Below, one piece after another: positions 3,196 to 64,000 of a stretch of 64,000 bases of DNA. The translations under genes were made by a program, and so were the position numbers. The stretch is from a virus (taxonomy: Duplodnaviria > Caudoviricetes): IMG/VR virus record IMGVR_UViG_3300006133_000325; one strand, given 5' to 3'. The notes under the pieces are model-generated. The model did no database searches. It saw only the letters and a program-made list of their open reading frames with translations, and was not told where the DNA came from. Positions within the stretch are counted from its first letter, which is position 1, and every line of letters starts with the position of its first letter.

Positions 3196-3274
3196 ACTTT
3201 CACCTTCTGTTATTATTTTCTTTACAAATTCATTATATCAGATTTCATGACTTTTTCAAGCATATACCGTCCTA

Positions 3275-3487: not shown

Positions 3488-3502
3488 ATAAACACTTCCT
3501 TT

Positions 3503-3763: not shown

Positions 3764-3862
3764 GTTATATTAACCTCCAATCTGAATTCATTATATCAGA
3801 TTTCACAACTTTTTCAAGCCAAAATTTCCTGCCCCTCACTATACAAACAAAGAACCTTTTCG

Positions 3863-5329: not shown

Positions 5330-5356
5330 GATTTTCCCTCCTGATTTTTCTTTTTT

Positions 5357-5407
5357 CCTGCACTCTGCATTTTCCGGGCTTGTGACCGTCTTCGGCTGCA
5401 TTACAGG
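5357..5407 (-). ncRNA. Twister ribozyme (type P1), canonical copy
   Basis: CCUG-UAA-UGCA-GC-CGAAGA-CGGUCACAAGCCCG-GAAAA-UGCA-GAG-UG-CAGG: P1, P2, P4 and both pseudoknots; predicted U|A cut at 5403/5402; intergenic. Confidence 0.9.
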
Positions 5408-5423
5408 GGCGGAACGTGTCCGC

Positions 5424-5609
5424 CTACATATACCAGTGATTTTTCACATACTCAATATGCGAGTTGGTCGGCAACGTCACATATACATCTTTTGCGTTTG
5501 GATTTGGTCTTAAAATTTCAACTGTGTTATTTTCATCGTCAAAATTGATTTTTGCTAACCTATAATTAAAGTCTTTATCCATTCCTTTATAATTAACTGT
5601 CATATCCAT
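5424..5609 (-). CDS. Hypothetical protein
   Basis: 61-aa ORF with GGGGG RBS and upstream TTGACA promoter. Confidence 0.55.
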   Translation of the reverse strand: MDMTVNYKGMDKDFNYRLAKINFDDENNTVEILRPNPNAKDVYVTLPTNSHIEYVKNHWYM

Positions 5610-45316: not shown

Positions 45317-45448
45317 AACTAAAATAGTCAAATTGACCAAATTTTGTTTTTAATTTTATATTTTTTGGCAAATATTCACAGTTGACTTTTTATGAAAACC
45401 ATGATAAAATAAGAGATACTATGAATCTCTAACAAAGGAGAATTTTAA

Positions 45449-45610
45449 ATGTTACAGCCAAAATTAATTTCATCTAAACCTAAATTAGATATTCCAGTTA
45501 GTTATTTAACTGAAACAGAAACAAAACAAAAATCATGCTTTATTGACAATAATAGAGTTGATACCGTAAAAACTGCCAAAATTATTGCGGACAAAAAACA
45601 AAAAGATTGA
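45449..45610 (+). CDS. Small protein (53 aa)
   Basis: TTGACT..TAAAAT promoter, AAGGAG RBS, MLQPKLISSKPKLD..; hairpin 45612-45650 follows. Confidence 0.5.
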   Translation: MLQPKLISSKPKLDIPVSYLTETETKQKSCFIDNNRVDTVKTAKIIADKKQKD

Positions 45611-45680
45611 ATTTTAAGCCAAGCACACAAACAAGTGTCTTGGCTTAAAAATTAAAACTGATTTTATAGAGGTAGCAAAA

Positions 45681-48206
45681 ATGAAGAATTTTCTGTTAAT
45701 ATTACTAGGAAAAGGAACAAATGATTCTATTAAACGGCATACTGAAGGACTGTTCAAATCAGAATGCTACTATGATTGGATTAAATTAAAAATAATCAGT
45801 AGTTCCAAGAGTCACCCATTTAAAAATGCCGAATCTCAACTTATTGCAAGTTACAAAGAAGAAATAAAGTTAAGGCAAGAAACACTTACTGATGGGATAC
45901 ATATACAGCAAGGTATTATTGCCTTACCCGTTGATGATGAAAACGATAATGTTTATTATAATTTTTTACAAGAACTTGTTAAAACAAGCATCATTTTTAT
46001 TTCTTTTATAAATATCCCATCATGGTCACAAAACAATCCTATAATTTCAAATAGAAATCCAGATCAAATTCAGAATTTAAATGAATTGATAAAGAAAAAT
46101 ATAAGTAGCAATATAGATAAATCAATTATGAGGTTATTTTACACTTTTGACCACAACGATTTAGTATTGATTTGTAATGGAAAAAATATGGAACTAAAAA
46201 ACTATCTGGAAACACTTGAGAAAATACGTTTTAGCCATTTAACAAATGGATATTTTGCCATACATGATATTACTACTATTTATGGATATAAAAATGTTCA
46301 TAATGAAGATTTAGACAAAATAGACAACATTAGTGTTGTTGTTAGTGTTAGTGGAAAAAACATTTCTCCTAGTAATATTCAAAGTTCATTCAGACTGGAA
46401 ACTATTGGAAGATACGATCACTTATCTGGATATAAAAATATTACATGGAAACAGATTTCCGAGTTAAGCAAAGAACTCCATGGGAAAGATGTTATTGCCT
46501 CGCGAGTACATATTGGTTATGAATTACCTGATAATTTGGTAGAAGAAAAAAATAAATTATATCTTTCTAACACAATATCATCGCCTTTATATTCTATATT
46601 TAAAGAAAAATATAAAAAAGAAATTGCTTCTTTAGATTTTAGTAAATTAGTTGAAATTTATGGTAACGATAAAGAGTACGTTGATTCATTAAAACTAATG
46701 TTGAGCGAAATTGGATTTGCTATAAACATAACATTACAAAGGGGATTCTCAAAATACAACAGTGTATGTTATATAGAGCCATACTTCTCTTTTATAAGAT
46801 ATATAAAAGAGAAAATAATTGAGAAATTTATTAATGAATCAGAAAAAAATCCATATTTAAAAGATACTATTGCCAAAGATTTGGCCGAATCGTTAGTGGA
46901 TATTTCTAATTCTTTCTATAAAAGTATTTTAACACTAGATTCAAGTATTATGCACAGTGAGCGTAGATTCATTATGTCAGACCCCCATCAATTAACGCTT
47001 TTTGATATCCCACCAAAACTAATTGCATATTATACTTCTATTGCTAGTGAAATGACAACGCTATTAAACAAAGACTCGAATAACACTTATGTATTTCTTA
47101 TTACCCCTGATATTAAAAAAGATATATATGTTGAGTCAATTACTCGTAATAGAGATATAGATAATGAAATAAATATACTTGTCATACATATAAATGAAAG
47201 AAGTATTTATAATGTTGCGTATACCACTAAAATCCTTGCTCATGAAATCGCTCACCATGTTGGGCAAAATAGTGACCTTAGAAAAGAAAGAGCAAATTAT
47301 TTCATAAAGTGCTATATAGCATTATTATTAAGAAGAGGACTTGATCCAGATTTATTTTTGAATTTTAACAAGGTTGAAGAAGCAACGAATTTTATTGGAG
47401 ATCTTGTCACAAAACTTTTTGCCCTTGTAGAGAAGTCTGATTTCACCGAAAATCAAAATAACTACTTCTATATGGATGAATTAGAGAAAGAATTTCATTC
47501 ATTTATAATAAAAAATTTAAGAGAATATAATGATATAGATCTCGATATATATAAAATATTTTCAAATTGTTTTGATGATAATATCACTACCAAATATATT
47601 CGCAATTCTAAAAGATTTTTTGCGAGTGAATTTGACTTACCAAGTGATGCTATTTTAAAAAATTATGTATGGAGACAGATACTTAATTCCGTATATACTA
47701 ATCTCCAAGAATATTTTGATAATTCTGAACAAATAAATGAAGATCGAAAGGGTATTCGATTTATACTTCAAGAAGGATATGCTGACATCCAAATGATATT
47801 GCTTACTGAAAATCAAAATTTACAAGTTGAGAAAATAACAAATAATTATTCGCAGCTTTTTAAAGGTTTAGAGGGAAAATCTGATGAAATGATTCGCATA
47901 TCAGCAGTTATCAATGCTTTCTGGGAAAAAGAAAAGAGGGATTATAGTAGTATTGCAGATTTACCTTTGATTTGTAATGATTCCCTTCTTGAGCGAGCTT
48001 ATTATACATATATTTGCAAACAGGCTTCTCTATACTTTACAATAGTCAAAGAAGATCACAATAACATGACAACATTATCAAATCATGATGAACTATATGA
48101 TTATTCTAAAACTTCTTTATTTATGTCTAATGATATAAATAAAATTATACAAGAGGTAGACAATACCATAGCATCTTATGTTAAAAATATTTTAATGAAA
48201 AATTAA
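45681..48206 (+). CDS. Large hypothetical protein with HExxH motif
   Basis: 841 aa; LAHEIAHHVG and downstream EGYAD. Confidence 0.6.
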   Translation: MKNFLLILLGKGTNDSIKRHTEGLFKSECYYDWIKLKIISSSKSHPFKNAESQLIASYKEEIKLRQETLTDGIHIQQGIIALPVDDENDNVYYNFLQELVKTSIIFISFINIPSWSQNNPIISNRNPDQIQNLNELIKKNISSNIDKSIMRLFYTFDHNDLVLICNGKNMELKNYLETLEKIRFSHLTNGYFAIHDITTIYGYKNVHNEDLDKIDNISVVVSVSGKNISPSNIQSSFRLETIGRYDHLSGYKNITWKQISELSKELHGKDVIASRVHIGYELPDNLVEEKNKLYLSNTISSPLYSIFKEKYKKEIASLDFSKLVEIYGNDKEYVDSLKLMLSEIGFAINITLQRGFSKYNSVCYIEPYFSFIRYIKEKIIEKFINESEKNPYLKDTIAKDLAESLVDISNSFYKSILTLDSSIMHSERRFIMSDPHQLTLFDIPPKLIAYYTSIASEMTTLLNKDSNNTYVFLITPDIKKDIYVESITRNRDIDNEINILVIHINERSIYNVAYTTKILAHEIAHHVGQNSDLRKERANYFIKCYIALLLRRGLDPDLFLNFNKVEEATNFIGDLVTKLFALVEKSDFTENQNNYFYMDELEKEFHSFIIKNLREYNDIDLDIYKIFSNCFDDNITTKYIRNSKRFFASEFDLPSDAILKNYVWRQILNSVYTNLQEYFDNSEQINEDRKGIRFILQEGYADIQMILLTENQNLQVEKITNNYSQLFKGLEGKSDEMIRISAVINAFWEKEKRDYSSIADLPLICNDSLLERAYYTYICKQASLYFTIVKEDHNNMTTLSNHDELYDYSKTSLFMSNDINKIIQEVDNTIASYVKNILMKN

Positions 48207-48919: not shown

Positions 48920-51433
48920 TTGGCAAGAAACGTTGACGGTGAAATTATTATCGGCATAGACCAGCCAAAATCCAACGCTGTGATAGAATCTGATTTAAAA
49001 TCCATTTTATCACAAATTAAAGATCTGGAAGCAAAAATCAACCAAGCGACATTAAGCAATGAGGCTATTACCTCTCTGCAAAAGCAAATTGAAGATTTAC
49101 AAACTTCTATCGAAATCTCAAATATCCATTTTAATACCAGCCAAGCTGCAAAAGCTGCACAAACTACTGGTGCCGAGATCGGACGGCAAATGTCTGATGG
49201 GATTAGTTCTGCGATTCAAAAAGGAGATTTTGAAAAAGAATTCTCTTTTAACAAAGGTGATAAAAATAAAGTCGCTAAAGTTGCAGAACAATACTTCCAA
49301 AAGATTACCGATGGCGCTGTATCTGTTCGTGAGCAGATGGATAAACTTGACAAAGCAACCGCATTGAATGGTTTTACAGTAGGTATTAAACACGCCAGCG
49401 GCGAAGTAGAGGAATTACAATATGTCCTCAAAAAAGTGTCCGAAGATGGGAAGGAAATTTTTCAATACACTGGTGGAAATATTAATGATTCTAATGTAGA
49501 AAAGCAAGCACAGAAAGTTCAAAATTCTATTGCTAAAATTGAGAGTGACATAGCGAATTTTGAAAATAATAACAGAAATATCTTATCCGGATTAAGTTCT
49601 CCATTAGAAGATTTTTATTTAAACTTAGAAAAACTAAGAAATAGAACTGGTAGCATTGATGAAGTTAAAAATTCATTTAAGAGACTAGAAACAGAAGCTT
49701 CCAATATCATGTCCAATCTAGATAATCAATTTAATAAAGTTGATACAGCGGTCAGAAATATTGAGAAAGGTCAAGACACCATTGCAGGGCTACGCGCCGA
49801 ATTCAAAGGGCTTACCAATACTCCCAAAGATATTGAATCTGAATTAAATAGGTTGTCCACTTCCCTTTCTAAGATTAAGGAAATTGAACAAACAGAAGGA
49901 CGGACAAAAAACTGGACGGTAGCCTATAAAGAATGGGAAGAACAGTTAAAATCTATCACGGAACGATTAAGAGTCCTAAAAAAAGAACAGAAAAATGCTG
50001 CTTCTACTCAGATATACCATACTGATGATTTAAAGAAGAACAACGTTCTTTACATGCAAAAGGTATTTAATACCATTGAAAAACAGATAGAGGAAATCCA
50101 ACATCTATCCAATGGACAAGGTTGGCAAAATTTCAAAGTTACCGGATTTGAAGAAGCCGATGGGCTAATTAAAAAGCTTACCCTTACTGTAACAGACGCA
50201 GAAGGTGCTATGAAAAGGCTAAATTTCCAAAGAGAGAAATTACAAGGTAGGGGTAAAGCCCAAAATGGACTTATACAGGTGGGCGATGTCCAAATTATAA
50301 AAACTGCTGCAGAAACATGTAAGGAGCTTGCACAGGAAGCACAGAAAGTCCGCTCTTCTATGGATGGTACTGGGAAAACCGATTACAATCTCCAGCTTGC
50401 AAAGATTGAAAAAGATTATCGTAATTTAGGTTTTACCCAAGAAGAAGTTAGCCAAAAAACAGAAAAACTTTCTACAGCACATAATGAATTGCGGCGGGTT
50501 ATAGACAGCACAGATTTCTCTACTGAGGTTGAGAAAAACAAAGCAATTGTCGCAGCAGATAAAGAACGTATAAAGGCACTGAACCAAGTCAGTAATGCTT
50601 ATAAGACTTTACGTCAAGATTCTGACAAATTTTATAATGAGAAAAAACAGATCAATCTCACAAACAGAATTCAAAAATGGCTTGAAACAAATACAAATGC
50701 TTCGGATAATGCCAGACAAGCTATTCAGGAATACTATAAGGAATTAAGTAGCGACCGCGTTTCTGTAGATAGACTCGATTATATTGAAAAATCTCTAAAA
50801 CGTATTAACACAGCACAGCACGGGCTTGGTAAAATAAGCAGTTTTGCAAAGCAATGGGGAAAAGAGGCAATATCACAACTAACTTCTATTGGAAGTTCTG
50901 CTCTTTCCTTTATGGAAATAGTAAACACTGCCAAAAAAGGGATTGCAACAATTACAGAATTAGATACTTCCTTGGTAGATCTAAGAAAAACCACTTCTAT
51001 GAACAGAGATGAATTAGAGGCATTTTACTATTCTTCTAATGACGTTGCAAAACAAATGGGTGTTTCTACAAAAGAAATTATTGATCAGGCTTCCTCTTGG
51101 AGCAGGCTTGGTTATTCTACTTCTGAAGCAGCTACACAAATGGCGAAAATTGCCTCTCAATTTAAACTAATCTCCCCTGGTATGTCATCTGACGAAGCAA
51201 CCTCTGGGCTTGTTAGTATCATGAAGGCTTATGATATAGATGTAGAAAATGTATTAGATGGCATTATGTCAAAAGTAAATGTTATTGGTAATAAATTTGC
51301 GCTTTCAAATGCTGATATTATCGCCATGCTACAGGATTCTGTTTCTGCAATGAAGGAAGCAAACAATTCATTGGAAGAAACAATTGCTTTAGAAACAGCA
51401 GCTTATGAAATCGCACAAGATAGAAGTGTCGGT
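48920..51433 (+). CDS. Tail tape measure protein, exon 1
   Basis: Long helical protein; ELDTSLVDLRKT..WSRLGYS..GNKFALS TMP core; ends ..DRSVG at the splice site. Confidence 0.9.
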
Positions 51434-51613
51434 AAATTATATCCATTGCCGACTAGCATAGTAATATGTTATTAATAAAAGTAGCTATATCGGTTAAAAT
51501 CCAGAGATGGACAAGACCGAGGAAAGACTAATTTTAGATTTTTTATGAAAAAGTATGGATTTATCTTCGATTGTAGTGTATAATATTGGCATTACAACTG
51601 AAGGGGTGAATTT

Positions 51614-52042
51614 GTGGAACTAGATGTAAGTCTATTTAATGAAACTATCAAAGTTCAATCTATTGGACGTTTCAGTCCAAAAGTGATCGAATTTATATTA
51701 AGTAAAAAAACAAGTTTTACTAATAGAATATCCTCAGATAATGATATCTTGTTTTGGGCTGCACGTGTAAAACATACAGAACGCCATCGAAAAGATTTTG
51801 CTAGTGATGACGAATTTGAACAATGTTTAAAAGAAATACCTTTGATTATTCAAAACCCTGATTATATTAGTATACACCCTACCGATGAGAGTATTTCTTT
51901 TATTAAAAAATATACGAAACATGTATCTGTTGCCATTAAGATATCTATTGATGGAAAAATGGTGTATAGAACGATGTATCCTTTGCGTGAAGAACAATTA
52001 AATGAATATATAGCAAATGGACGGGCTTGGAAATATACTTGA
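51614..52042 (+). CDS. Intron-encoded PBECR-type nuclease-fold protein
   Basis: KHTERH..LKEIPLIIQNPDYI..VAIKI..RTMY; no LAGLIDADG, GIY-YIG or HNH motif; lies in the P6 loop. Confidence 0.7.
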   Translation: MELDVSLFNETIKVQSIGRFSPKVIEFILSKKTSFTNRISSDNDILFWAARVKHTERHRKDFASDDEFEQCLKEIPLIIQNPDYISIHPTDESISFIKKYTKHVSVAIKISIDGKMVYRTMYPLREEQLNEYIANGRAWKYT

Positions 52043-52074
52043 CAAATTCCTTCTTATGTTGTAATATAATTATA

Positions 52075-52200
52075 GATGAAAGACATATACTATGAAAGAG
52101 AAGATGTAAATAAGGACGGAACAGGCAGCCGTCACTCCACTTTTGTGGACTTAAAGAGATACTGGAGTGCCACCCAGTTATTTACATTCTTCTCTTTTTT
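52075..52200 (+). ncRNA. Putative sRNA downstream of the PBECR gene
   Basis: TTGACA(52039)-17-TAATAT promoter; closing stem aagagaagatgtaaataa/ttatttacattcttctctt; inner stems; U tail. Confidence 0.55.
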
Positions 52201-52477
52201 TATTGTTTTTTATATCGAAGCAACGAAAATGTCTATAATAAAAATATTTTTTGCAAAATTCTTTATTAAATCTAATATTAGAATCCGTAGAGACTGTAAT
52301 ACTACATATGGTAACATTTGTGGTTCCGCTACTCTCCTATTTTTATAGGATGAAGATCCAGTCCGAACTTACAATATAATTGAAATATAAAATGTAAGAA
52401 CATGCCAGAAATGACATGTCGCCATATTACAAATATGGTCAGTACCTATTTGCTAGGGAAAGTAACAGATTTTTTTG

Positions 52478-53029
52478 AATGGATTTAAAACAGTTGCTCT
52501 AAGACTAAGAGGACTTAATGAAGAAACAGAAGAAGTTGACGAATCTCTAAAAACTATTAAAGGAGATTTGTATGAACTTACTGGTGTTTCTATTATGGCA
52601 GATGAAAACACTTATAAAAGTACATACCAAATTTTAAAAGAGATGAGTGAAGTTTGGGGTGTTCTTACAGATAAAACAAAAGCAGAAGCTTTAGAGCTAA
52701 TGTTTGGAAAGCTTCGTGCAAATATTGGAGCTTCTGTATTAAAAAATTTCTCTGCTGCAGAAAAAGCTATGAATGATATGGCGAACAGTGCTGGTAGTGC
52801 CGATGCCGAAATGTCTATCGCCATGGATTCTATTGAATATAAAATAAATTCCTTAAAAGAAACTGGAACAGGTATTGCTCAGAATATTTTCAATAGAGAT
52901 GATATGAAATCAGTAATTGATATCTTTGGAAGTTTTGCAAATGCAATTGATACAATTACTGACAAACTTGGATTTTTCGGTACTATTGGTGCAGGTATCG
53001 GTACTTTTACTATATTAAAGAACTTAGGT
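52478..53029 (+). CDS. Tail tape measure protein, exon 2
   Basis: NGFKTVALRLRG..KSTYQILKE..SAGSA..KNLG TMP sequence with no RBS of its own. Confidence 0.9.
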
Positions 53030-53516
53030 AGGGGAAAAAGGTATCCCCTTATATCGAATATGCCTATTATAGTATTGTTCCCTGTCTAAATGACAGGTCT
53101 TATATATTATCCTTTGTGAAATACACAATTGAATTCGCAGATATGGTATCCCTCTACATTATGGATGCACCCTTTAGCAATTAAGGGGCTTGAAGGTACG
53201 TAAACCCATTACTACTCTTCTACTATGGCGACATAGTAGAATTGTGACAATGTAATGGCTCGTACTACGAGCAGATGACAGCGTACAATATGTACAAAAA
53301 CCTTATTAAAGGTGAAATCTCATTTCTATGAGTGCTAATCTCAACGACTACCAGGGCGAGTGGTATCCGGTGAAACTCCTGATACTGCAAGGAATAGTCT
53401 AGACTTTGCCGAATGTAACGGTTAGTAATTGCTGTTAGGAACTCATCTCCTACGTTTACAGTTTGTGGAACCCTTGTTGTCAGGGTGGATGAGATGACAA
53501 CTAAATTATATTATAA

Positions 53517-53810
53517 GTGACGTATTCCCCCCTACTTTAAAAAGTGGGGCTTTCTGCTCAATAGCCCTAATGGACTAAGTATCAACGAGCTAACCCCGTC
53601 CGCCCGACGCTTTCACGGATGATGTTTGATTCGTACCTTGGATATTTTATGCACAGAAGGACGCTTGGTTTTCGCATATTGGTTTTCTCTGTGCAACCTG
53701 CTATATCCCAGTTGTCAATGTACGAATCATTATGCTTGGTATAACAGAAATTTTGGAGAAATGAAAGAGGAACACAATTATCCCTAACCTTAGAGGTCGG
53801 AGTCTTCTTG
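53517..53810 (-). mobile_element. Non-autonomous IS200/IS605 derivative retaining a TnpB omegaRNA-like right end
   Basis: Minus strand: left end CAAGAAGACTCCGACCTCTAAGGTTAGGG; right end CGTCGGGCGGACGGGGTTAGC..AAGCCCCACTT..GTCAC. Confidence 0.7.
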
Positions 53811-53939
53811 CTGAAAAGGGATAAAATGTCGAAATAAAAAATACGATTTTTTATCATTTTTCAAATTAACTATTGACAAAAATCCCAAAGTATACTAATC
53901 TAAAAATATCATTTTTTAATATTTGGGGAGGTAGCAATT

Positions 53940-54920
53940 ATGAAGGATTTACAAATTAAAACACGAGCATTGTCGTCACTTTTAAAGGATATTCAAAAAG
54001 GAAAATTTAACTTTAATCATCCTTTACAAAGACAAAGTGGACAATGGAACAGAGCAATGATGAGTAAGCTAATTGATACTATTCTACGTTTATACCCTGT
54101 CTATCCTGCATTAGTAGAAGATAACGGAAGTAATGGATACGGGGTTATAGATGGTAAGCAACGACTCACGATATTTGAATCTTATGTTAATGATGGATTT
54201 TCGCTTAGTAAAACTTTACTTCCTATTGAAATTGATGGGGTTCAATATGAAATTGCTGGAAAGAAATTTTCAAAATTAGACGAGGTTTTAAAAGATAGAT
54301 TTTTATCCAGAGAAATACAGCTATATATTATGACTGATGCTACGGAAGATGATATCCGTGAAATATTTGCCAGAATAAATTCCTCCAAGGGCTTATCTAA
54401 TACTCAAAAACGTACTACTGTTGAAAATGAGAAATTGGCAAAGATAATTTTCGATCTGAAATCTCATCCATTATTTGAGAAAATTACTACCCCTAATCAA
54501 CGTAAGAAAGATGAAGATAAAGATATTGTTCGTCAAACTCTTATGTTGTTGACTGCGGGCAAAGATTACGATTTTGGTTCTTTTCGGAATGATGATATTA
54601 ACAAATTCTTAGTTATGTATAATGATAATATCGATCATGATAAAATTGACTTATTAAAAGAAGCTATGGATAGTCTGGATACAGCATTTGAAACACTTTC
54701 TGTGAAAAAGACTACTGCTCCTATCCTACTCTACTCTTACTATAGAGTGATTAAGGACAAAAAGGATATCCAGAAATGGAATGAATGGGTTAAAAAATTC
54801 TTGGAAACATACGATACTAACGAAGAATATTTGAAGTATTGTAATGGTAGCGGAACTGCTTCTGGTGAAATGGTGAAAGGACGTTTGGATTATTTCAGAA
54901 ATGCGTTAAGAGAACTTTAA
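53940..54920 (+). CDS. DUF262 (GmrS/ParB-like) domain protein
   Basis: QR..W, VIDGKQRLT, IFARINS motifs; own TTGACA..TATACT/TAATCT promoter. Confidence 0.88.
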   Translation: MKDLQIKTRALSSLLKDIQKGKFNFNHPLQRQSGQWNRAMMSKLIDTILRLYPVYPALVEDNGSNGYGVIDGKQRLTIFESYVNDGFSLSKTLLPIEIDGVQYEIAGKKFSKLDEVLKDRFLSREIQLYIMTDATEDDIREIFARINSSKGLSNTQKRTTVENEKLAKIIFDLKSHPLFEKITTPNQRKKDEDKDIVRQTLMLLTAGKDYDFGSFRNDDINKFLVMYNDNIDHDKIDLLKEAMDSLDTAFETLSVKKTTAPILLYSYYRVIKDKKDIQKWNEWVKKFLETYDTNEEYLKYCNGSGTASGEMVKGRLDYFRNALREL

Positions 54921-54930
54921 TAATAGAATG

Positions 54931-54969
54931 AAAAAAAGAGCTTGCTGTGAGGGCAGGCTCTTTTTATTT
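54931..54969 (+). terminator. Intrinsic terminator
   Basis: aaagagcttgc..gcaggctcttttt. Confidence 0.8.
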
Positions 54970-55095
54970 ATTACAACAAGAATTGTATTCGCATATAAAA
55001 GCATATTATATATTGTAAACACGATATTGCTATTATTTGTATATTATGTTATAGTAATTATGGTAGTATAAATATAAATGTAAGGTGGATAAAAC

Positions 55096-56301
55096 ATGAA
55101 GATACCTAACTTCCTTATAAAAGATGCTTATCTACAAAATCCTATTATGCGTCGTTTTTTAAAGGAACATAAATTAGATTTTGTAGATAATAAAACAGAT
55201 TACATAAAAACTATAACAGCGTTTGCAAATCTTAATAAAGAAAATGAAAAAGAAGTACTAAATTGGCTTTTAAAAGTTTCAAAAGAAGGTAGCAAAGAAA
55301 TATGTTATCGAAAAATTTATGGCATTGAAGAATATTCTAAAAATCCTTCATTTTTAGAGAATATAATTAAAGATGCATGTCCAGATTGTCCTATGAAAAA
55401 CATCTTATCTTATAAGAATACTCATGAAAGAAAGATGATTGAATATAAAATTATTACTAATGATAATAACGAAGCTATTAGAATAGATTTTACATTTTCC
55501 CGATTATTTTTTTATAAAAATGGAGAAAATATAGAAGGTGAAACAGTTTTCCCTATATTTATTGAAGTTTATTTAGATAAAGGATTTATTATAAGTAGAG
55601 CAAAGGCTAAATCTACGCTTTGTGATTGCAGGAATAATGAACAAAATAATAACGATGTTACAAAAATAAATACCATAGACTATGCGATATCTACTATTAA
55701 TGCAATTATTCATATATTAAATTTTAATGCTGAATCTAATACTAAAATAGTAAATAGCGAAGTCTCTCAAATGCTCTATGGATTATATAAGCAATATTCA
55801 TTTACACCAGAAGATATAGAACATAAAATCAATTCACAAAATTCTTTAATAAATGAATTTGTTAATCATTTTTTTGATAATTTGCATCTCAACATAAGAA
55901 ATAAAGAAAGTGCTATTATGGATACAAAGATTCTTTTAGAAAAATATATATCTGTTAATGGAGATACTGAATCAATATTCAAAAATGATAGAGATGCATA
56001 TCTTACAAAGATTCGTGCTGATGATGAAAGTGAGCTTACAATAATTGACACAACATCTTATAAAAGCGTACCATTACAGTGTACAGAAGCATTTTTTGAT
56101 AGTAAAAAATATGTTATAAGAAGTAAGGCATGCAAACGTTTAAAATTAATTTTTAAGCGTATCGATGAGACTTATTTTAAAGGGAACCCTCTTGTCGTAC
56201 AATTTGGAATATATAAAAATTGTGGTTATGTAAAAACTATGCAATATGCAGAGGAGGCTGATATACAAAATGTTTTACAAACAATTTTTAAAAATTACTG
56301 A
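55096..56301 (+). CDS. Hypothetical protein, first gene of a two-gene operon
   Basis: 401 aa, very AT-rich, own promoter, overlaps the next gene. Confidence 0.65.
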   Translation: MKIPNFLIKDAYLQNPIMRRFLKEHKLDFVDNKTDYIKTITAFANLNKENEKEVLNWLLKVSKEGSKEICYRKIYGIEEYSKNPSFLENIIKDACPDCPMKNILSYKNTHERKMIEYKIITNDNNEAIRIDFTFSRLFFYKNGENIEGETVFPIFIEVYLDKGFIISRAKAKSTLCDCRNNEQNNNDVTKINTIDYAISTINAIIHILNFNAESNTKIVNSEVSQMLYGLYKQYSFTPEDIEHKINSQNSLINEFVNHFFDNLHLNIRNKESAIMDTKILLEKYISVNGDTESIFKNDRDAYLTKIRADDESELTIIDTTSYKSVPLQCTEAFFDSKKYVIRSKACKRLKLIFKRIDETYFKGNPLVVQFGIYKNCGYVKTMQYAEEADIQNVLQTIFKNY

Positions 56302-57343
56302 TGTTTTAAATTCTTCTTTTGTTGAAAATTTTGATTATTGGCTTGCCACTTTACCAAAAAATAATCAAAAAAGTATAACAGCATCTCTTGTTTCTGCGAA
56401 GTTTGGTGTAAAGTATTCTTTTTCCGAATTTATTCTTGACTTTGCTGAAAAACAGGGAATACTTGAAAAGTATTATTTAGTAAGATGTCCAGACTGTGAT
56501 TACCCATTAGAATCTTGTACAGAAGAAGCAGCAAATATTTTAGTAAATCCTATTTATTGCGATGAATGTGAGGAGTACAAATATATCTCCTCAGACGATA
56601 TTTACGTAATTTATAAAGTTATAATGCAACCAGATGCTACTGAAGATGAAATATCGGCAGCAATAGAAATGAGATTAGAACAGACCAAAAATGCAAAAGT
56701 AAATTTTTGTCATGCTGATTCACTTTCCAATAATATATCTTCCTTATATGAAATCTTCTATAATCCAAGTGAATCAGCTTATAATGAGCTTAAATTATTA
56801 AGGGGAAAACTTGATTTGGATTATGGAAGTAATACCACTGATAAAGGAAATTCTTTAGAAATACTAATTTCAAAAATTTTTAATCTCATCAAACACGTAT
56901 CAGTAACAACTGATATAAAAACTAAAACCAATCAATTTGATTGTACTGCTTTATGTAGAGTAAATTCCACATATCCTTCTGTATTTAATTACCTATCTCC
57001 TTATTTTGTTATCGAGTGTAAAAATGAAAAGAAGAAGCCTGATAACACTTATACTAATAAATTAGAAAGTATATTAGATACTAACGAAGCACAATTAGGA
57101 ATCATTTTCGGAAGACAAAATGCAACAAAAACATGTTTTAATATTTCCAGAGAACATTATTTATTAAATAGGAACTCTAAAAAGCAACAAATTATTATAT
57201 CATGTTGTGATGATGATTTAAAATACATAATTGACAAAAAGGTAAATTTATTACAATATATAGAATTTAAAATTTTTCAAATTACTTCTAATAGCCCTTC
57301 TTCAACATTTGAAATAAGGCTACCGCAATCCCACTGGCTTTAG
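56270..57343 (+). CDS. Zn-ribbon plus PD-(D/E)XK (Mrr-like) nuclease; extreme C-terminus hit by IS
   Basis: CPDC..CDEC; KGNSLE..QFD..IECK; GAGGAGG RBS before ATG 56270. Confidence 0.7.
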   Translation: MFYKQFLKITDVLNSSFVENFDYWLATLPKNNQKSITASLVSAKFGVKYSFSEFILDFAEKQGILEKYYLVRCPDCDYPLESCTEEAANILVNPIYCDECEEYKYISSDDIYVIYKVIMQPDATEDEISAAIEMRLEQTKNAKVNFCHADSLSNNISSLYEIFYNPSESAYNELKLLRGKLDLDYGSNTTDKGNSLEILISKIFNLIKHVSVTTDIKTKTNQFDCTALCRVNSTYPSVFNYLSPYFVIECKNEKKKPDNTYTNKLESILDTNEAQLGIIFGRQNATKTCFNISREHYLLNRNSKKQQIIISCCDDDLKYIIDKKVNLLQYIEFKIFQITSNSPSSTFEIRLPQSHWL

Positions 57344-57392
57344 ACGGTGGGTTAAGGTAGCCAAAAGTGGCGGTTTGTGTTATACTTGCGTC

Positions 57393-57797
57393 ATGGGAAC
57401 ATGGAAATCAAAAAACAGGCACAAATATTTGTTACAGTATCATATTATTTTTGTATGTAAATACAGAAAGAAGCTGTTTGCATCAGAACATATATCGGAT
57501 GATATAAAACAGCTTTCGTACGAGATATGCCAGAAACATCATGTGATTATCAGATATATGGAAACTGACAAAGACCATATCCATTACATGATAGAAACAG
57601 AACCGACAATGTCTGTCAGTAAAATAGTAAATCTGATGAAGAGTTACACGACATACCATATATGGAAAAAGTATCAAAACTATCTGCGAAAGCATTTTTG
57701 GAAGGAGCGCACATTCTGGACGGATGGATATTTTGCGTGTAGCGTTGGAAATGTTTCGGAAGAAATGCTTAAAAAATATATAGAAAACCAGGGATAG
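57393..57797 (+). CDS. tnpA: Y1 HUH transposase
   Basis: YHIIFVCKYR, DHIH, FWTDGYF, YIENQ. Confidence 0.95.
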   Translation: MGTWKSKNRHKYLLQYHIIFVCKYRKKLFASEHISDDIKQLSYEICQKHHVIIRYMETDKDHIHYMIETEPTMSVSKIVNLMKSYTTYHIWKKYQNYLRKHFWKERTFWTDGYFACSVGNVSEEMLKKYIENQG

Positions 57798-57813
57798 GGG
57801 GAGACGGCAGCAA

Positions 57814-58917
57814 ATGTTAAAAGCGTACAAATATAGGATATATCCAAATAATGAGCAGAAAGTGCAGATTGCAAAAACATTTGGCTGCTGCCGTTTTGTC
57901 TATAACCAGACTTTAGCACATAGGAAAAATGCTTATGAAAAAGAAAAGAAATCTGTCAGCAGAACAGACTGTAATAATTATTGTAACAGAGAGTTAAAGA
58001 AGGAATATGAGTGGCTGAAGGAAGTGGACAAATTCGCCCTTACAAATGCCATTTATAACATGGATGCGGCATTTCAGAAGTTTTTTAGGGAACATACAGG
58101 ATATCCGAAATTCAAAAGTAAGCATGATAACCATAAGTCTTATACTACAAATTTCACAAATGGGAATATTGCTGCAGATTTTGAGGACGGGAAGATAAAA
58201 CTGCCAAAGTTAAAGCAGGTAAAGGCAAAATTCCACAGGGAATTTGATGGACAGATAAAATCAGCCACAATTTCCCAGGTACCAAGTGGAAAATATTATG
58301 TGTCAATACTTGTGGAAACAGAACATGGAGAACTACCGCAAACAGGCAAAAATATAGGTTTAGATTTAGGCATAAAAGATTTATGCATTACGTCAGAGGG
58401 GAAGAAATACGAAAATCCAAAGACAATAAAAAAATATGAGAAAAAACTGGCAAAACTGCAAAGACAGCTTGCACATAAAGAGAAAAGAAGCAGAAATTAT
58501 TATAAACAGAAAAGGAAAATCGCACGTTGCCATGAGAAAATTACAAATACCAGAAAAGATTATCTGCATAAAGTTTCCCATAAGATTATCAGCGAAAACC
58601 AAGTGATAGTTTCGGAAAACCTGCAGATAAAAAATATGGTAAAAAACCATCAACTGGCAAAAACAATATCAGATGTGTCGTGGTACGAATTAACAAGACA
58701 GTTAGGGTATAAGGCAGAATGGAATGGGAGACAGTACATAAAAATAGATACATTCTATGCAAGCAGCCAGATATGCTCAGCCTGTGGGTATCAGAATACA
58801 GACATAAAAGATTTATCCGTAAGGGAATGGATATGCCCAAAGTGCAGAGCGAAACATGATAGAGACATCAATGCTGCAAAGAATATATTGGCGGAAGGAT
58901 TACGGCAGATAGCATAG
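57814..58917 (+). CDS. tnpB: RNA-guided endonuclease TnpB
   Basis: RuvC GLDLG, SENL, HDRDINAA; CSAC..CPKC zinc finger. Confidence 0.95.
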   Translation: MLKAYKYRIYPNNEQKVQIAKTFGCCRFVYNQTLAHRKNAYEKEKKSVSRTDCNNYCNRELKKEYEWLKEVDKFALTNAIYNMDAAFQKFFREHTGYPKFKSKHDNHKSYTTNFTNGNIAADFEDGKIKLPKLKQVKAKFHREFDGQIKSATISQVPSGKYYVSILVETEHGELPQTGKNIGLDLGIKDLCITSEGKKYENPKTIKKYEKKLAKLQRQLAHKEKRSRNYYKQKRKIARCHEKITNTRKDYLHKVSHKIISENQVIVSENLQIKNMVKNHQLAKTISDVSWYELTRQLGYKAEWNGRQYIKIDTFYASSQICSACGYQNTDIKDLSVREWICPKCRAKHDRDINAAKNILAEGLRQIA

Positions 58918-59312
58918 GATAATAAAATAGGGATGGTGCAGCCCGAATTTACGCCTGTGGAGATAGTAGGTTACGAGGTCGATGAAGCAGGAAGCCCATT
59001 GGCTTTAGACAATGGGTAGTTCACATGTTTTGTAAAGGCAATTAATTTTTATTCTGCTTATTTAAAGAAAAAGTTATTAAAACAACGATTAATGAAGGCT
59101 TGATAATTAACAATAAGAAAATGAATTTTGGGGATGCGGATAGAGTTTTACAGTATATTGCAGAGTTTGAGTTCAAACATCAATATCGTCATTTTTGTTA
59201 TTTTAATGTCATATGCGTATTAGATAAAGAGAATCATATAATAGAACTACTAGATACATTATCAAATCCCAAGAGGATTTCTTTCAGACAAAAGAAAGGA
59301 AAGTTTCTATTC

Positions 59313-61435
59313 ATGAAAAAATTTGATGAATTAAAAGCAGAATATAATAGATTCCACAATAAAGACAAAAGTGTCAATTGCTTCTTGCCAGTTCATTTAA
59401 CAAATGGAAAAGTCGAAACCAATCTTTTTAAAAAGAATGGTACACATAATGAACAATATTACAAATGGCAATTCCTAAATTGTTTTGTCGAAGCAGGATT
59501 ATGTTCAAAAGATTATATTGGAACTGAAGTAAATTTTCCTAAAGGAAATAAAAGTTCTACTATGATAAAATTAGATGGTGCAATTTTTGATGATAAAAAT
59601 TGGTTTGACCATTATCAATCTTTGCATACCAAGAAAGATGATTCCAGATGGGATGAATTAAATTGGTTAAAAGAACATCTTATATGTGCTTTAGAGTTTA
59701 AAAAAGAAGGTTCAAAAGATATAAAGGGCGTATTTAATAGCCAATTAAAAACCTACATGAATGAATCTTCAAAAGAAATAGTGCTTGGTATTTTATATGA
59801 TGAAGAGAGACTATATTTATTTAAATCTGAAGGAAAAAATATTATCGTTTAAGTGATGAATTTAATATCGAAAACAAAGGTAAACTTGAACCTACTTTTG
59901 ATATTCCTGATGGATATAGTAATCTATTAAGTTTTGATGAAATCATAAAGTATGATACATCCAAAAAAACTCTTAAAGATTATTCTGGAAGACAATTAAG
60001 TGAATTAAGTATTATTTCAAAAACTGATTCTAAAAGATTAAATGATGCTCTTTATCAAATCTTACACACCATGGATAAATGTGGTTTAGTTAATCAGAAA
60101 GGCTATAATATATTGATTCAACTACTTACGTTAAAAATATATGATGAAAAAAATAATTTTTCTGATTTAAAGTATTATATTAATCCAGCAGAATCTACAT
60201 ATAAAAAAATATCAGAAGATGGTCTGCAAGAATTTTTACAAAGAATTGAACAAATTCGTATAAAGGCAAAAACACAATATAAGAAAATTCTTAAAGAGAA
60301 TTACTTTGATCATAAAAACGAAAACCAAATTAAAGTTGTTATTGAAATTGTTCGCCAATTTCAAAATTATAGTTTTACTTGTTCAGAAAGAAATAATTTA
60401 TATCAATTAGTATTTTATCAATTTGCCTCTCAATTCAGCAAGGCGGATAATGCTCAATTTGTAACTCCATTACAAATAATTGATTTTATTGTGGATATGA
60501 TAAATCCAAAACACAATGAAAGTATTATTGATCCTACTGTTGGTATTGCTGACTTTTTATCCGTATCTTATGTAAAATCAAACGGAACATTAGATGATAA
60601 AAATTTCTATGGGCTTGATATAGATGAAGATATGGTTAAACTAGCAACTCTTAATATGCTTTTAAATGGTGATGGAAATGCTACGATTGAGGCACAGACA
60701 GATGGACTTGGTTCGATAAACACAAAGTTTGATGATGAAGGTAACTTGATTAAGCTTGTGCCAAAAACAGAAAAGCAAGAACATAATTATAACGGCAAAT
60801 GGGACAACAGAGTTGATGGAAAATCCCTGAAAAAATTTAATATAGTTTTAACAAATCCGCCATTTGGTGAAGCAAGATCATGGATCCCAACAGGAAGCGA
60901 AAAAGATATTGCTGAATGCTATGAATTATGGAACAAATATAAGCAAACAAAAATTGATTTAGGTGTAATTTTTCTTGAAAATGCAGTACGTATTTTAGAG
61001 CGTAATGGTAGAATGGCTATCGTTTTATCAAATTCGATTGCATCTATTGATGCTCATAAAGAAGCCAGAAAATGGTTGTGTGAAAATATGAGAATTGTTG
61101 CAATTATTGATTTACCTGCAAATATTTTTGCGGAAGCAGGAGTCGCTCCTACTATTATTATCGCCTATAAACCAGATAACGCAGAGTTGATGAAATTAAA
61201 AAACAATAATTATCAAGTTTTTTCAAAGGAAATAAAGAAGGTGGGATATGAAGTCAAAACCAAAAATAAAGTTAAGTGTTTTGAAACTCAATATAAATTA
61301 AATCCAGAAACTTTTGAAAAAGAAATTAATGACGATGGAACCGCAAAATTAGATGAAGAATTTACAGAGACAGTATTAGCCTTTAAACAATGGTGTAACA
61401 AACAAGAAGATACTTTGAAAAAACTATTTTTGTAA
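59313..61435 (+). pseudogene. Fused endonuclease/N6-adenine methyltransferase (type IIB/IIG-like), split by a 1-nt frameshift at A6 59834-59839
   Basis: E..D..EFK nuclease N-domain; DPTVG and NPPF MTase motifs; second frame is open from 59840. Confidence 0.8.
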
Positions 61436-61454
61436 AAAAGGGGCAGTACCTAAA

Positions 61455-62954
61455 ATGAAGAAACAATATATTGACATTCCTCTCTTTACTACTTTTGAAG
61501 ATATAATTAACAAAGATTATACTTTATCAGCTACACAATACAAATCTTTTTTATGTAAAAACAAGAATATTAAACCAGTTTCTGAATTTTTGGATCGAGA
61601 TTTACAAAGAAAAGATTTAGGAAGTGAAGTTGGGAGTGAATCCTATGTAGAAAATTCTCCTTTCTTTTTTATCAAAACAAAGGCTTTACAGCCAGAATCA
61701 TATTTATTAGATATTACAAAAGAATCTATTCCAAGCATAACGCCAAAGAATTATATCGAAATGAATTTAAGACAGGGAGACTTATTAATATCAAAAGACA
61801 GCAATGTAGGCGAAATAGTTATATTAGATAAAGATTATCCAAACACCATGCTTTGTGGTGGTATTTATCGATTACCTATTACAAAAAATAAATATTATTT
61901 GTTAGCCTTTATTAAAAGTGATATTTTTTCCATGCAAATAGATTTCCTTGTTCCAAGAGGTTCTACAATTAGACATGGAAAAACAAAATTTTTGGATTGC
62001 ATGATTCCAATGCCAAATAAAAATCCTAAAGAAACGATTCAATATATAGAATTATTAATACAGGCTATTATTAGTAAAGAAATTAAAATAAGAAAAAAAC
62101 ACAAACAAATTATTAATGAAATCCAAAAAGAACTAGAATTAAATCAAAATAATAGAGAGTTTAAATATAATTTACCAAATATATCTGAAATAATGAACTT
62201 GGACAGAATGGATTCGTCTTTGTATTCTGAAGAATTTAAAAAGAAAGAATTTCTTATTAGCAATTATAAATATGGTGTATCTTCTATAAAAGAATTGGGA
62301 TTTGAAATTACTAGAGGTCAAAATTTGCAAATATCAAATATAGGAAAGTCTATTCAGACTGATACATATAAAGAAGGATACTACACTCTTATATTACCTA
62401 AATTCTTATCAAAATATGGAACGGTATACAAACAAGAATATTTAGGAAATCCCAACAAATTAAAGACTTTAAAAAAAGGAGATATAATATTTGGTGCAGA
62501 AGGAAATGAAAAAGGTAGGTCTTTAGCAATAATAGAAGAGCAAAATAATGCAATTACCAATATACATGGAATTACTTTAAACCAAAAACAGCATAATTTA
62601 ACAAAGGGTATTTTTATCAAATTATTTTTAGATTATTATAGGACACATGGTATGATAGACTCCTATGCTGTTGGAGGTAATGGTGGAAGTTTGGCAATAA
62701 AGTATTGGGATTTTTTAAAATTTCCAAATTTTTTAGATGATAAGGAAGCCGAAATTGTACAGTTATACCACAATGAAAATGTTACTTATTCTCCTGGAAG
62801 ATGTACTTTAAATGACTTTTTGGATTATGATTCTGCATTTAATAAAGAAGCTGGAATATATGAAATAGACAAAACTATAAAATATTTACAAAAAAAATTA
62901 AACAATGCTATCAATAATATTGTTGATGATAATGAAGTTAAGATCGAATTTTAA
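61455..62954 (+). CDS. R-M specificity (HsdS-like) subunit
   Basis: Two TRD-like halves (LRQGDLLIS, LKKGDIIFG) with helical spacers; follows the MTase. Confidence 0.75.
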   Translation: MKKQYIDIPLFTTFEDIINKDYTLSATQYKSFLCKNKNIKPVSEFLDRDLQRKDLGSEVGSESYVENSPFFFIKTKALQPESYLLDITKESIPSITPKNYIEMNLRQGDLLISKDSNVGEIVILDKDYPNTMLCGGIYRLPITKNKYYLLAFIKSDIFSMQIDFLVPRGSTIRHGKTKFLDCMIPMPNKNPKETIQYIELLIQAIISKEIKIRKKHKQIINEIQKELELNQNNREFKYNLPNISEIMNLDRMDSSLYSEEFKKKEFLISNYKYGVSSIKELGFEITRGQNLQISNIGKSIQTDTYKEGYYTLILPKFLSKYGTVYKQEYLGNPNKLKTLKKGDIIFGAEGNEKGRSLAIIEEQNNAITNIHGITLNQKQHNLTKGIFIKLFLDYYRTHGMIDSYAVGGNGGSLAIKYWDFLKFPNFLDDKEAEIVQLYHNENVTYSPGRCTLNDFLDYDSAFNKEAGIYEIDKTIKYLQKKLNNAINNIVDDNEVKIEF

Positions 62955-62964
62955 CCCAACGCAG

Positions 62965-63003
62965 CAAGAAGCCCCCGCCTCTTAGGCGGCGGGAGTATGT
63001 CAC
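62965..63003 (+). mobile_element. Minimal ~39-bp IS200/IS605 end remnant
   Basis: CAAGAAG start as in the 53.8-kb left end, one hairpin CCCGCC/GGCGG, GTCAC end. Confidence 0.6.
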
Positions 63004-63015
63004 TAACTTATTAAA

Positions 63016-63267
63016 ATATTTGATAAACCAATAACAGCGATAAAGGGAATTATTGATGAGTTAAAGTCGTATAACTCCGTGCTTTCTGAGTCAACAGACC
63101 TACAGAAATCGCACATTGATGTAGTGACGCAGCAAAATTCTTCATTAGGAAATTATTTATCTGGGTTAAATGGTGCTGAAGCATCGCTGGGCGGTTATGC
63201 AAAGTCTTTAGTTAAGTCAAAAATTGCTTCTATCGGACTACAGGCTGCTTCTATTGCGCTAAATGCT
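63016..63267 (+). CDS. Tail tape measure protein, predicted exon 3
   Basis: IFDKPITAIKG..LGNYLSGLNGAEASLGGYAKSLV..AASIALNA is TMP-like; no RBS; in frame with exon 2. Confidence 0.65.
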
Positions 63268-63340
63268 AAGCTTGATAATTTATCCTCATGTAAAATTAAC
63301 CAGGAACACTTTTATAGGCATTCCTGGTTATGCTGCTTTT

Positions 63341-63970
63341 CTATTCTTTGATAAAATCGACACATAATATTCCATCTTCTGTATCATAAAAAATAGTCAA
63401 TAATCCATCACTATCTTTACATGTAACCTTATTTCCTTCCACTTCATATGTTCCAGTTTTTGTTTCTACTACTTGATAATCATGAACATGTGATTCACTA
63501 TTATTACAACCAGAACATGCCATATAAATAAATTCAACTGTATTATCTTTATTAAATTGAATTGTGTCAGCTATTGACCAATTTTCATATGTTACCTCTG
63601 TTTCTTGATTTTGAAGTGGTAATTCACCTTCCCATTTATAACAAATCATATTTTTATAAACATAGCCAAAATCTGAACCAAGTTCTATATCGTCAGATTC
63701 CTCTTCTCCATTAAATAATGTTAGCTTATTTTCATCAATTCTATATGTTCCATAATCAAACCAAGTAATTCCCATATCATCCAATTCTTCTCCAAATCCA
63801 TCAATGTCATAATAATTAGTAGAATATGTTCCATCTTTTGAAAACCTAAAATAGACTTCTGTGTTTAAACCTATATATTTACCCTCAAGTATATTTCTAT
63901 TGGAGTTACATGCTATCAACCCTAATAAAAACACCATCATTATCAAAATTATATTGACTTTCTTTTTCAT
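63341..63970 (-). CDS. Lipoprotein with two repeated beta domains
   Basis: Signal peptide with LIAC lipobox; FSKDGTY..GTYRID and FNKDNTV..GTYEVE repeats; GGAGG RBS. Confidence 0.8.
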   Translation of the reverse strand: MKKKVNIILIMMVFLLGLIACNSNRNILEGKYIGLNTEVYFRFSKDGTYSTNYYDIDGFGEELDDMGITWFDYGTYRIDENKLTLFNGEEESDDIELGSDFGYVYKNMICYKWEGELPLQNQETEVTYENWSIADTIQFNKDNTVEFIYMACSGCNNSESHVHDYQVVETKTGTYEVEGNKVTCKDSDGLLTIFYDTEDGILCVDFIKE

Positions 63971-64000
63971 TTTAAAACCCTCCCGTTATTTTTTATCAAT

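Follow-up and report, generated by a model that had tools for sequence, protein, structure and literature searches.

A candidate 11.8-kb group I intron in the tape-measure gene of an SPbeta-like gut phage

How can a phage produce its tape-measure protein (TMP) when the reading frame breaks off and is resumed almost 12 kb downstream? This question is raised by a stretch of 64,000 nucleotides (nt) from IMG/VR record IMGVR_UViG_3300006133_000325, referred to here as the window. We propose, with a probability of about 0.7 on the sequence evidence, that an 11,780-nt group I intron splits a tape-measure gene of ~2,880 codons between ILKNLG and VFDKPITAIK. It would be removed at the RNA level during late transcription, giving one full-length protein. 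The original prediction had described a very long group I intron splitting this gene after KNLG, with its core at the 5' end and accessory genes between the P9 region and a distant 3' site. That outline is retained here, with a different 3' site.

In the proposed mechanism, a complete core of ~480 nt (P1-P9 and a peripheral domain) directly follows the 5' splice site. The guide at 53052-53066 would bind the 5' exon by means of P1, in which U.G is the pair at the point of cleavage. Its 5' half would form P10 with the opening 10 nt of exon 3, whose first base, 64810, follows the terminal G. All that lies between the core and roughly the final 150 nt would be cargo attached on the 3' (P9) side: a DUF262 gene with its own promoter, then two open reading frames (ORFs), an IS200/IS605 element, a frameshifted methylase next to a specificity gene, and a pair of antisense genes for lipoproteins, of which one follows a dead copy of the exon 3 start. 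The ligated RNA is expected to read AACTTAGGT joined to GTATTTGAT, encoding ...ILKNLG-VFDKP... with the junction peptide NLGVFDKPITAIK. The precursor would most likely be a long read-through transcript made by the YonO-type RNA polymerase of the phage itself.

The divided tape-measure gene

The source is an SPbeta-like phage of gut Firmicutes, with its nearest relatives in Lachnospiraceae. The window encodes a terminase large subunit, a portal and virion proteins. At 15787-18558 it carries a homologue, 923 amino acids (aa) long, of SPbeta YonO, the single-chain late-gene RNA polymerase (23% identity to SPbeta yonO; 37-40% to proteins of Enterocloster and Clostridium phages). Relatives of the tape measure are found in genomes of Lachnospiraceae and other Clostridia and in gut viral contigs, where they adjoin YomU-, YomV- and YomW-like tail genes. 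The parts on which the argument rests are as follows.

48920 to 51432, plus strand: tape-measure exon 1, ~838 codons, ending ...DRSVG; positions 2-120 of the Pfam PhageMin_Tail profile.
52478 to 53029, plus strand: tape-measure exon 2, 184 codons, NGFKTVAL...ILKNLG; positions 137-201 of the same profile.
53030 to 64000, continuing to window-equivalent position 64809, plus strand: intron 2, 11,780 nt in total.

A single Pfam profile is shared out between exons 1 and 2. The first break in the frame measures 1,045 nt, and ~120 homologues run from exon 1 into exon 2 uninterrupted. Exon 2 is 66-97% identical to these homologues up to the Gly of K-N-x-G. Beyond this residue all of them diverge, with 0-45 mutually unrelated residues followed by a stop. 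The end originally placed at GGT (53029) is a complete codon, and it is at this codon that the ~120 homologues lose their similarity. A set of ~200 related loci, not de-duplicated, was drawn from genomes, viral contigs and metagenomes; in it, the frame at the end of exon 2 meets a stop in 104 cases and continues for more than 200 further codons in 95. Individual loci are numbered below with the prefix L.

The C-terminal part of the protein (TMP-C) can be traced through a TMP-like segment in the window (63007-63351), which is 99% identical to residues 10-95 of a 1870-aa protein, P0121. The first 300 residues of P0121 were used in a HMMER search of 1.8 billion representatives. Matches in close relatives start erratically near their own N-termini, while distant relatives of 2,000-3,200 residues contain internal matches. 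At least 25 distant proteins hold, in the same order and within a single chain, counterparts of exon 1, exon 2 and TMP-C. Uninterrupted homologues read K-N/G-x-G-[V/I/L]-F at the junction. The comparison of intron-less homologues across KNLG, suggested with the original prediction, finds them contiguous, reading KNxG[V/I/L]F. As far as the junction, L108, whose allele is intact, differs hardly at all from L173, whose allele is split. Because of the colinear uninterrupted homologues and this pair of alleles, we conclude that the halves of the tape measure were ancestrally one gene.

Among isolated phages, a blastn search gave nothing relevant, and tblastn finds no match to the N-terminal 887 residues of TMP-C. 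Single-protein scans of IMG/VR returned no match.

Two other ways of joining the parts were considered and rejected. A split intein does not fit tails of 0-45 unrelated residues and an exon 3 whose first residue is Val. Translational bypass was rejected on sequence grounds.

Intron core, guide and 3' splice site

The region directly 3' of 53029 can be folded into a group I core. Its predicted elements, all on the plus strand, are:

53030-53049: P1 extension hairpin.
53052-53061: P10 guide, followed by the guide P1 strand at 53062-53066.
53081-53097: P2, fully compensated in L074.
53113-53128: P2.1, covarying across the family.
53133-53137 with 53357-53361: P3, ATTCG/CGAGT, assigned by eye and compensated in L074.
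53188-53192 with 53268-53272: P4, GCTTG/CGAGC; J4/5 is AA.
53195-53200 with 53261-53266: P5, GGTACG/CGTACT.
53206-53212 with 53252-53258: P5a, CCATTAC/GTAATGG, covarying.
53220-53239: P5b, with a GCGA tetraloop, covarying.
53346-53350 with 53395-53399: P7.
53362-53367 with 53381-53386: P8; J8/7 is AAGGAA.
53408-53411 with 53419-53422: P9.
53442-53493: 3' peripheral domain, a CTCATC...GATGAG stem with compensated pairs in L074; similarity to L074 ends at ~53510.

P7 and P8, already named in the original prediction as part of a core at this position, are backed by covariation. The introns of the window and L074 are 72% identical over 514 nt, with 17 doubly changed pairs in RNAalifold, and the corresponding exon 2 proteins are 44% identical. 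A covariance model, R1, was built from eight other loci (L177, L124, L101, L138, L054, L045, L064 and L133), excluding both the window and L074. RNAalifold of these eight gives P5a, a GNRA-capped P5b, P6, P8 and a P7 that encloses P8; 25 of 38 pairs are compensated. R1 matches the window at 53204-53422, from P5a to P9, over its full length (61.2 bits, expect value (E) 1.2e-15), and it also matches L003, L029 and L074. Matches were obtained in 14 of the 51 sources scanned (50 loci and the window). In an alignment of 14 sequences, 93% of the cells are paired and 30 of the 38 pairs are doubly changed. No shuffled control equals the observed value, and slid controls fall to 28-41% paired. P3 and P4 were counted by motif anchoring, as MAFFT misaligned P3 across intron subgroups. 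In each of the six compact members both helices are formed and covary. There, P3 is located directly upstream of CAAUA(A/U) and directly downstream of GACAAC, and P4 is AGCGGG/UCCGCU or a variant of it.

The guide connects the core to the preceding exon. As originally proposed, TAGGT (53025-53029) pairs with GCCTA (53062-53066). The pair at the junction is U.G (T53029.G53062), and the P10 guide TATCGAATAT adjoins GCCTA at 53052-53061. Five variants show the exon end covarying with the P1 strand of the guide: TAGGT/GCCTA, GTCGGT/GCCGAC, GTTGGT/GCCAAC, ACAGGT/GCCTGT and TTCGGT/GCCGAA. Taken with the 3' site described below, the predicted structure has the features that define a group I intron: a P1 with U.G, P10, a terminal (omega) G, a P4-P6 domain and a P3-P7-P8 pseudoknot domain.

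One subtype (L045-L051, L126-L129) departs from this pattern. Its exon ends in ...GTCGGC and its guide is ACCGAC, so that both partners have changed and C.A replaces U.G at the cleavage site. The P1-extension hairpin begins at +1, like in the other subtypes.

A second core lineage occupies the same insertion codon. In L105, the Rfam group I model RF00028 detects an intron (60.7 bits, E=1e-12) directly after ...KGIG, between the G and IF. Its guide is CCGAATAT-GCCTA, and a terminal G followed by exon 3 (ATATTCGGT...) lies 1.85 kb downstream, beyond two antisense ORFs. The L105 and window introns share the insertion point, a near-identical guide and a 5' core, which in L105 is followed by 1.5 kb before the terminal G. 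They differ in core lineage (R1 misses L105; RF00028 misses the window) and in the far shorter cargo of L105.

Exact-pattern scans of IMG/VR with two conserved core blocks returned the L074 contig only. GACTA...TAGTC hairpins in L003, L074 and L124 had been considered as P7 and were dropped; they constitute a separate, highly conserved cargo element.

The 3' splice site lies outside the window. We read it in L205, a contig from a JGI metagenome that runs ~10 kb past the window end. The reverse complement of L205 is identical to window positions 58950-64000 (100% over 5,051 nt, zero mismatch), and L205 is evidently the same phage. The true site, AAAG followed by GTATTTGATA, falls between window-equivalent positions 64809 and 64810, 0.8 kb beyond the window end and at the start of a 1870-codon frame. 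With the terminal G at 64809 and exon 3 from 64810, the intron measures 11,780 nt; the ~10 kb of the original prediction is replaced by 11.78 kb. In L205, a truncated copy of the exon 3 start comes first, two lipocalin-like lipoprotein genes in antisense orientation follow, and next are ...GGTATAAAG followed by GTATTTGATAAACC... and the 1870-codon frame. Within the window, this region contains:

63010 to 63267, plus strand: truncated duplicate of the exon 3 start (the decoy), 81% identical to the true copy at window-equivalent 64811-65061.
63341 to 63970, minus strand: lipocalin-like lipoprotein gene (Lipocalin_4), convergent with the decoy; one paralogue lies beyond the window, and paralogues are present in L005 and L205.

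At the true site, TATCGAATAT forms 10 pairs with GTATTTGATA of L205, including 2 G.U. The same arrangement is found in all six loci in which exon 3 was located: a terminal G, a P10 match of 7-10 nt and, where the contig allows, more than 1,000 open codons. The introns of these loci measure ~1.0 (L177), 1.85 (L105), 6.0 (L064), 6.5 (L139), 8.9 (L066) and 10.3 kb (L005). Positions 7-10 of P10 covary (CGGT/ACCG, AAAA/TTTT, GATA/TATC), and P10 covariation is seen in L105, L064 and L005. In the L064 type (L064:10576-16589, L066, L139), a 7-bp P9.0 additionally links the core to a 3' site 6-9 kb away: GUACUAU directly after P7 pairs with AUAGUAC or AUAGUAU before the terminal G, and the helix is kept through a G-C to G.U change. 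The window has a short P9.0, UUU with the AAA that precedes the terminal G. The core, guide, P10 and terminal G are kept or covary despite the 6-12 kb between them.

The original prediction ended the intron at 63015 and joined exon 2 to ATATTTGATA at 63016, giving the junction AACTTAGGT-ATATTTGAT. The complementarity of ATATTTGATA to the guide is real (9 Watson-Crick pairs and 1 G.U over 10 nt) and in frame. As a splice acceptor, however, this position is very improbable. It is preceded by A and not by the omega-G, and its frame, open from 63007, runs for 111 codons into a stop at 63351 in the convergent lipoprotein gene. The decoy shares 96% identity with the beginning of the 1870-aa gene in L005, a locus that resembles the window closely (99.5% identity at 53300-54939, 97% at 59047-64000). 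L005 contains three copies of the ~260-nt exon 3 start. Of the two or three duplicates present at a locus, only the last leads into the 1870-codon frame. The original prediction also contained a docking duplex between 53424-53439 and 62955-63008. It did not hold up: its energy of -9.9 kcal/mol is equalled by 8% of random cargo windows, and it adjoins the decoy instead of the true site. The flank upstream of the true site is unrelated to that upstream of the decoy, and long-range duplex folding of the core tail with the true 3' flank was no better than with shuffled sequences.

Copies of the exon 3 start interleave with the antisense lipocalin-like lipoprotein genes, with one dead copy in the window and two in L005. 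Cassettes were probably inserted beside the 3' splice site through recombination that duplicated the exon flank. A small hairpin is also present ~45 nt upstream of the true 3' site (L205 ~9190-9215, window-equivalent ~64756-64781). It is kept through compensation, with ACGG..CCGT in L005 (9974-9993) and ACGAC..GTCGT in L205.

It is generally known that SPbeta-type and other intervening elements rebuild genes by excision. Site-specific removal of the DNA at induction, with the RNA structure being incidental, is barely conceivable here. Covariation of the guide with both exons is explicable only by an RNA mechanism. The cargo contains no integrase or recombinase except the IS200/IS605 genes, and that element is missing in L005. 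There are no boundary repeats, and joining at the shared AGGT gives an in-frame stop codon.

Cargo and transcription

Between the core and the region of the decoy, the intron carries the following features.

53940 to 54920, plus strand: ParB-DUF262 NsnA-like protein gene, 326 aa; Pfam GmrSD_N, PADLOC NsnA (1e-32, full length); preceded by a promoter-like site.
54933 to 54965, both strands: two-way intrinsic terminator-like hairpin, a 14-pair stem with flanking A and T runs.
55096 to 57343, plus strand: two overlapping ORFs, 401 and 365 aa; missing in L005, with other genes in their place.
57375 to 58993, plus strand: IS200/IS605 element with tnpA and tnpB (Y1_Tnp, OrfB_IS605, Cas12f1-like_TNB).
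59100 to 59852 and 60071 to 61435, plus strand: frameshifted N6-adenine methylase, type IIG- or MAD2-like (N6_Mtase, Eco57I; PADLOC MTase).
61455 to 62954, plus strand: specificity-subunit-like gene (PADLOC Specificity_I).

Of the cargo originally listed, DUF262, the IS200/IS605 element and a methyltransferase with a specificity-like gene are confirmed. The label of a two-gene nuclease operon at 55096-57343 finds no match in Pfam, PADLOC or NCBIfam. The methylase of the supposed restriction-modification system is frameshifted relative to L005: it is a single 771-aa ORF there (3266-5581), which a 1-nt indel splits into 250 and 454 aa in the window and L205. Family searches found no HsdR in the cargo of the window. 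At the end of the IS200/IS605 element there is a RAGATH-18-like RNA, sub-threshold at 27 bits.

The cargo is a mosaic. The two ORFs and the IS200/IS605 element of the window stand where L005 has three small ORFs, and L064, L066 and L139 have a common 466-nt core with cargo that differs in blocks (introns of 6.0, 8.9 and 6.5 kb). The same core with different cargo, which the original prediction had suggested looking for in relatives, is thus found. Its idea of a neutral landing pad fits this variation, but not the first gene, which is a conserved resident. In at least seven locus types, the core is followed on the plus strand by a full-length DUF262 orthologue (42-50% aa identity) as the first ORF, 0.6-2.7 kb past the 5' splice site and alongside different core subtypes; carriers include L003, L058, L064, L066, L074, L101, L125 and L139. 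Because of this position in at least seven locus types, we regard the gene as a resident of the intron lineage and not as a chance passenger.

Menshen (NsnABC), GmrSD and PD-T4-2 are defence systems (PMC12065111). The resident ORF matches NsnA of Menshen over its full length, with ParB-DUF262 and a DNA-binding C-terminal domain. Unlike in Menshen or GmrSD, it stands alone and is linked to an intron. Neither an NsnB ATPase nor an NsnC effector lies beside it, the ORFs that follow have no ATPase or nuclease match in Pfam, PADLOC or NCBIfam, and the protein itself contains no nuclease domain, DUF1524 included. No cargo ORF matches the homing endonuclease families LAGLIDADG, GIY-YIG, HNH, His-Cys, PD-(D/E)xK or EDxHD. 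We consider the ParB-DUF262 protein a candidate for a new intron-associated protein that takes the position of a homing endonuclease; it may act in mobility, maintenance or exclusion.

Several observations weigh against an intron that is spliced as proposed. A transcript in cis must pass the strong terminator at 54933-54965, further hairpins and convergent genes. The group I model RF00028, whose use the original prediction had recommended, gives no match in the window intron at E up to 10; among 21 loci scanned at gathering and permissive thresholds, it matches only L105. We take this as a sensitivity limit of the model and not as a structural criterion. P3, P4 and P5 of the window were assigned by eye, although each is compensated in L074, L064 or L133, and P7 of L074, the nearest relative, has one uncompensated mismatch. 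Apart from P9.0, P10 and the terminal G, no structural element common across intron types was found that returns the 3' site to the core. A nearer G-terminated site with a 9-pair P10 exists between 53621 and 53622, 592 nt from the 5' end of the intron. Its use would extend the N-terminal tape-measure part by no more than 40 junk codons, and what looks like its L074 counterpart lies within an antisense ORF; we treat it as chance or cryptic.

The terminator, which the original prediction had announced on the plus strand and which proves to be a strong two-way hairpin, may be approached in two ways. YonO of SPbeta pauses little and synthesises a single long late transcript. In multisubunit polymerases a flap domain, which YonO lacks, mediates termination at hairpins (PMC5467207). 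Given the little pausing and the missing flap domain, read-through of the cargo seems plausible. Alternatively, the exons could be spliced in trans. RNA 1, comprising exons 1-2 and the core, would end at the cargo terminator, and RNA 2 would start in a divergent promoter region upstream of 64810 and be captured via P10 and P9.0. This agrees with the terminator, with another terminator-like hairpin at 53530-53549 and with the L064 type, in which a hairpin and a T run come right behind the core. A promoter-type spacer of ~150 nt, beside an antisense gene, precedes the true 3' site, and the 10-bp P10, plus the 7-bp P9.0 in L064, would let two molecules dock. We nevertheless consider the trans route doubtful. 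Conserved complementary halves of the intron, as in known split organellar introns, were not found; loci with the same core differ in what precedes the 3' site (L064 vs L066, L139); and YonO-type polymerases are highly processive (PMC5467207).

The extreme length, the internal terminators and the antisense genes could also indicate a relic. The phage would then make two proteins that assemble non-covalently, an N part with a 19-residue junk tail and a C part starting from a TTG 33 nt upstream of 64810, or it would be a defective prophage. Gene callers do call the TTG start, and Rfam detects no intron. However, no Shine-Dalgarno sequence precedes the TTG, and the called starts of TMP-C homologues are erratic, as exons would give. 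The core is retained with compensating changes, and the guide, P10 and terminal G persist in lineages whose introns measure 6-12 kb. Phages that are near-identical but differ in cargo recur across several metagenomes. A relic is improbable on these grounds. Because the splicing signals are maintained and near-identical phages with different cargo occur in independent metagenomes, we argue that the full-length tape measure still depends on splicing.

The first interruption of the tape-measure gene appears to be another intron. Its features are:

51433 to 52477, plus strand: intron 1, assigned from splice signals alone.
51614-52042: PBECR3 nuclease ORF (RNase-fold) within intron 1, E=2.9e-16.
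52105-52186: skipping-rope RNA within intron 1, 65.8 bits.

Its splice signals are a GTCGGT exon end paired with GCCGAC, a guide ATCCATT complementary to AATGGAT at the start of exon 2, and a terminal G. Intron 1 is not present in the ~120 exon 1-exon 2 homologues, and neither the Rfam group I model nor R1 matches it. Related introns occur at its site in L011, L021, L029, L139, L188 and others. Skipping-rope RNAs are reported to go with one protein family, and their function is unknown (PMC5737381). Here, the pair of a PBECR3 ORF and a skipping-rope RNA is located within an intron. Drum RNAs, DUF3800 and skipping-rope RNAs form one RNA-protein association group (PMC5737381). DUF3800 genes are found in the related phages L205 (2625-3359) and L003 (21948-22766), and a drum RNA in L101 (3975-4080) is slightly sub-threshold (40.1 vs 43 bits).

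Between the tail genes and the tape-measure gene, at 44318-48206, two large ORFs (332 and 841 aa) have no match in Pfam, PHROGs or PADLOC. The pair looks like a moron-type insert.

Relation to known introns and meaning

The classical phage introns, such as those of T4 td, nrdB and sunY, of SPO1 and of Twort, measure 0.25-1.1 kb and contain one homing endonuclease ORF looped from a peripheral helix. The window intron shares with them the P1/P10 guide, the 5' U.G, the terminal G and an essential phage gene as host. Its R- and S-like strands (AACGACUA ... AAUAGUCU) presumably resemble those of td. In contrast to the classical introns, it has no recognisable homing endonuclease but a ParB-DUF262 resident, and its cargo lies behind a complete core.

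The introns described by Tourasse and Kolsto in 2008 are reportedly of normal length and have either a homing endonuclease or no ORF at all. Group I introns are found in the tape-measure genes of Bacillus cereus-group prophages, where several insertion sites and lineages occur in one gene (PMC2504315). They resemble the window intron in being of the self-splicing type and in lying within a prophage tape-measure gene. Major differences are the length of 11.8 kb (6-10 kb in relatives), the presence of up to 10 genes on both strands, and the failure of Rfam to detect the window intron.

In trans-spliced organellar group I introns, distant exons are joined through guide pairing. Large or nested group I introns of fungal mitochondria reach up to ~5 kb (PMC2987802). 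Like the window intron, the fungal mitochondrial introns owe their unusual length to inserted ORFs or elements. Both groups carry homing endonuclease or maturase ORFs or further introns, while the window intron holds independent bacterial operons, an IS element and antisense genes.

In the literature searched, with incomplete coverage, there was no report of such giant introns and no bacterial or phage example. The kind of intron is already known. New are the size, the multi-gene cargo on two strands, the DUF262 resident, the core lineage that is invisible to Rfam, and the commonness: about half of the ~200 related loci stop at the last codon of exon 2, although R1 matches only 14 of the 51 sources scanned.

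It is an open bet, with about even odds, that giant introns of 6-12 kb form a lineage, widespread in SPbeta-like gut phages, which serves as a mobile platform for accessory genes within an essential virion gene. The complete ribozyme would stand at the 5' end, and the ParB-DUF262 protein would take over from the homing endonuclease as the resident, acting in mobility or maintenance. Splicing would be accurate over more than 10 kb, either through a terminator-resistant YonO-type transcript or in trans.

Phage group I introns are small and carry one homing endonuclease gene at most. If the proposed reading is true, this intron would be more than 10 times the usual phage size and contain independent operons on two strands, and a ribozyme would set splice sites across more than 10 kb in bacteria. 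Production of the full-length tape measure would be tied to late transcription, while defence-type genes, IS elements and antisense lipoproteins gather behind the DUF262 gene. Introns would then be prophage hot spots for accessory and defence genes. Gene callers and Rfam would systematically miss such introns, and more than 100 related loci would have been read as truncated tape-measure genes. The family offers a natural test bed for group I splicing in cis versus in trans and for whether YonO-type polymerases ignore host terminators. It may also point to a new function for stand-alone ParB-DUF262 proteins.

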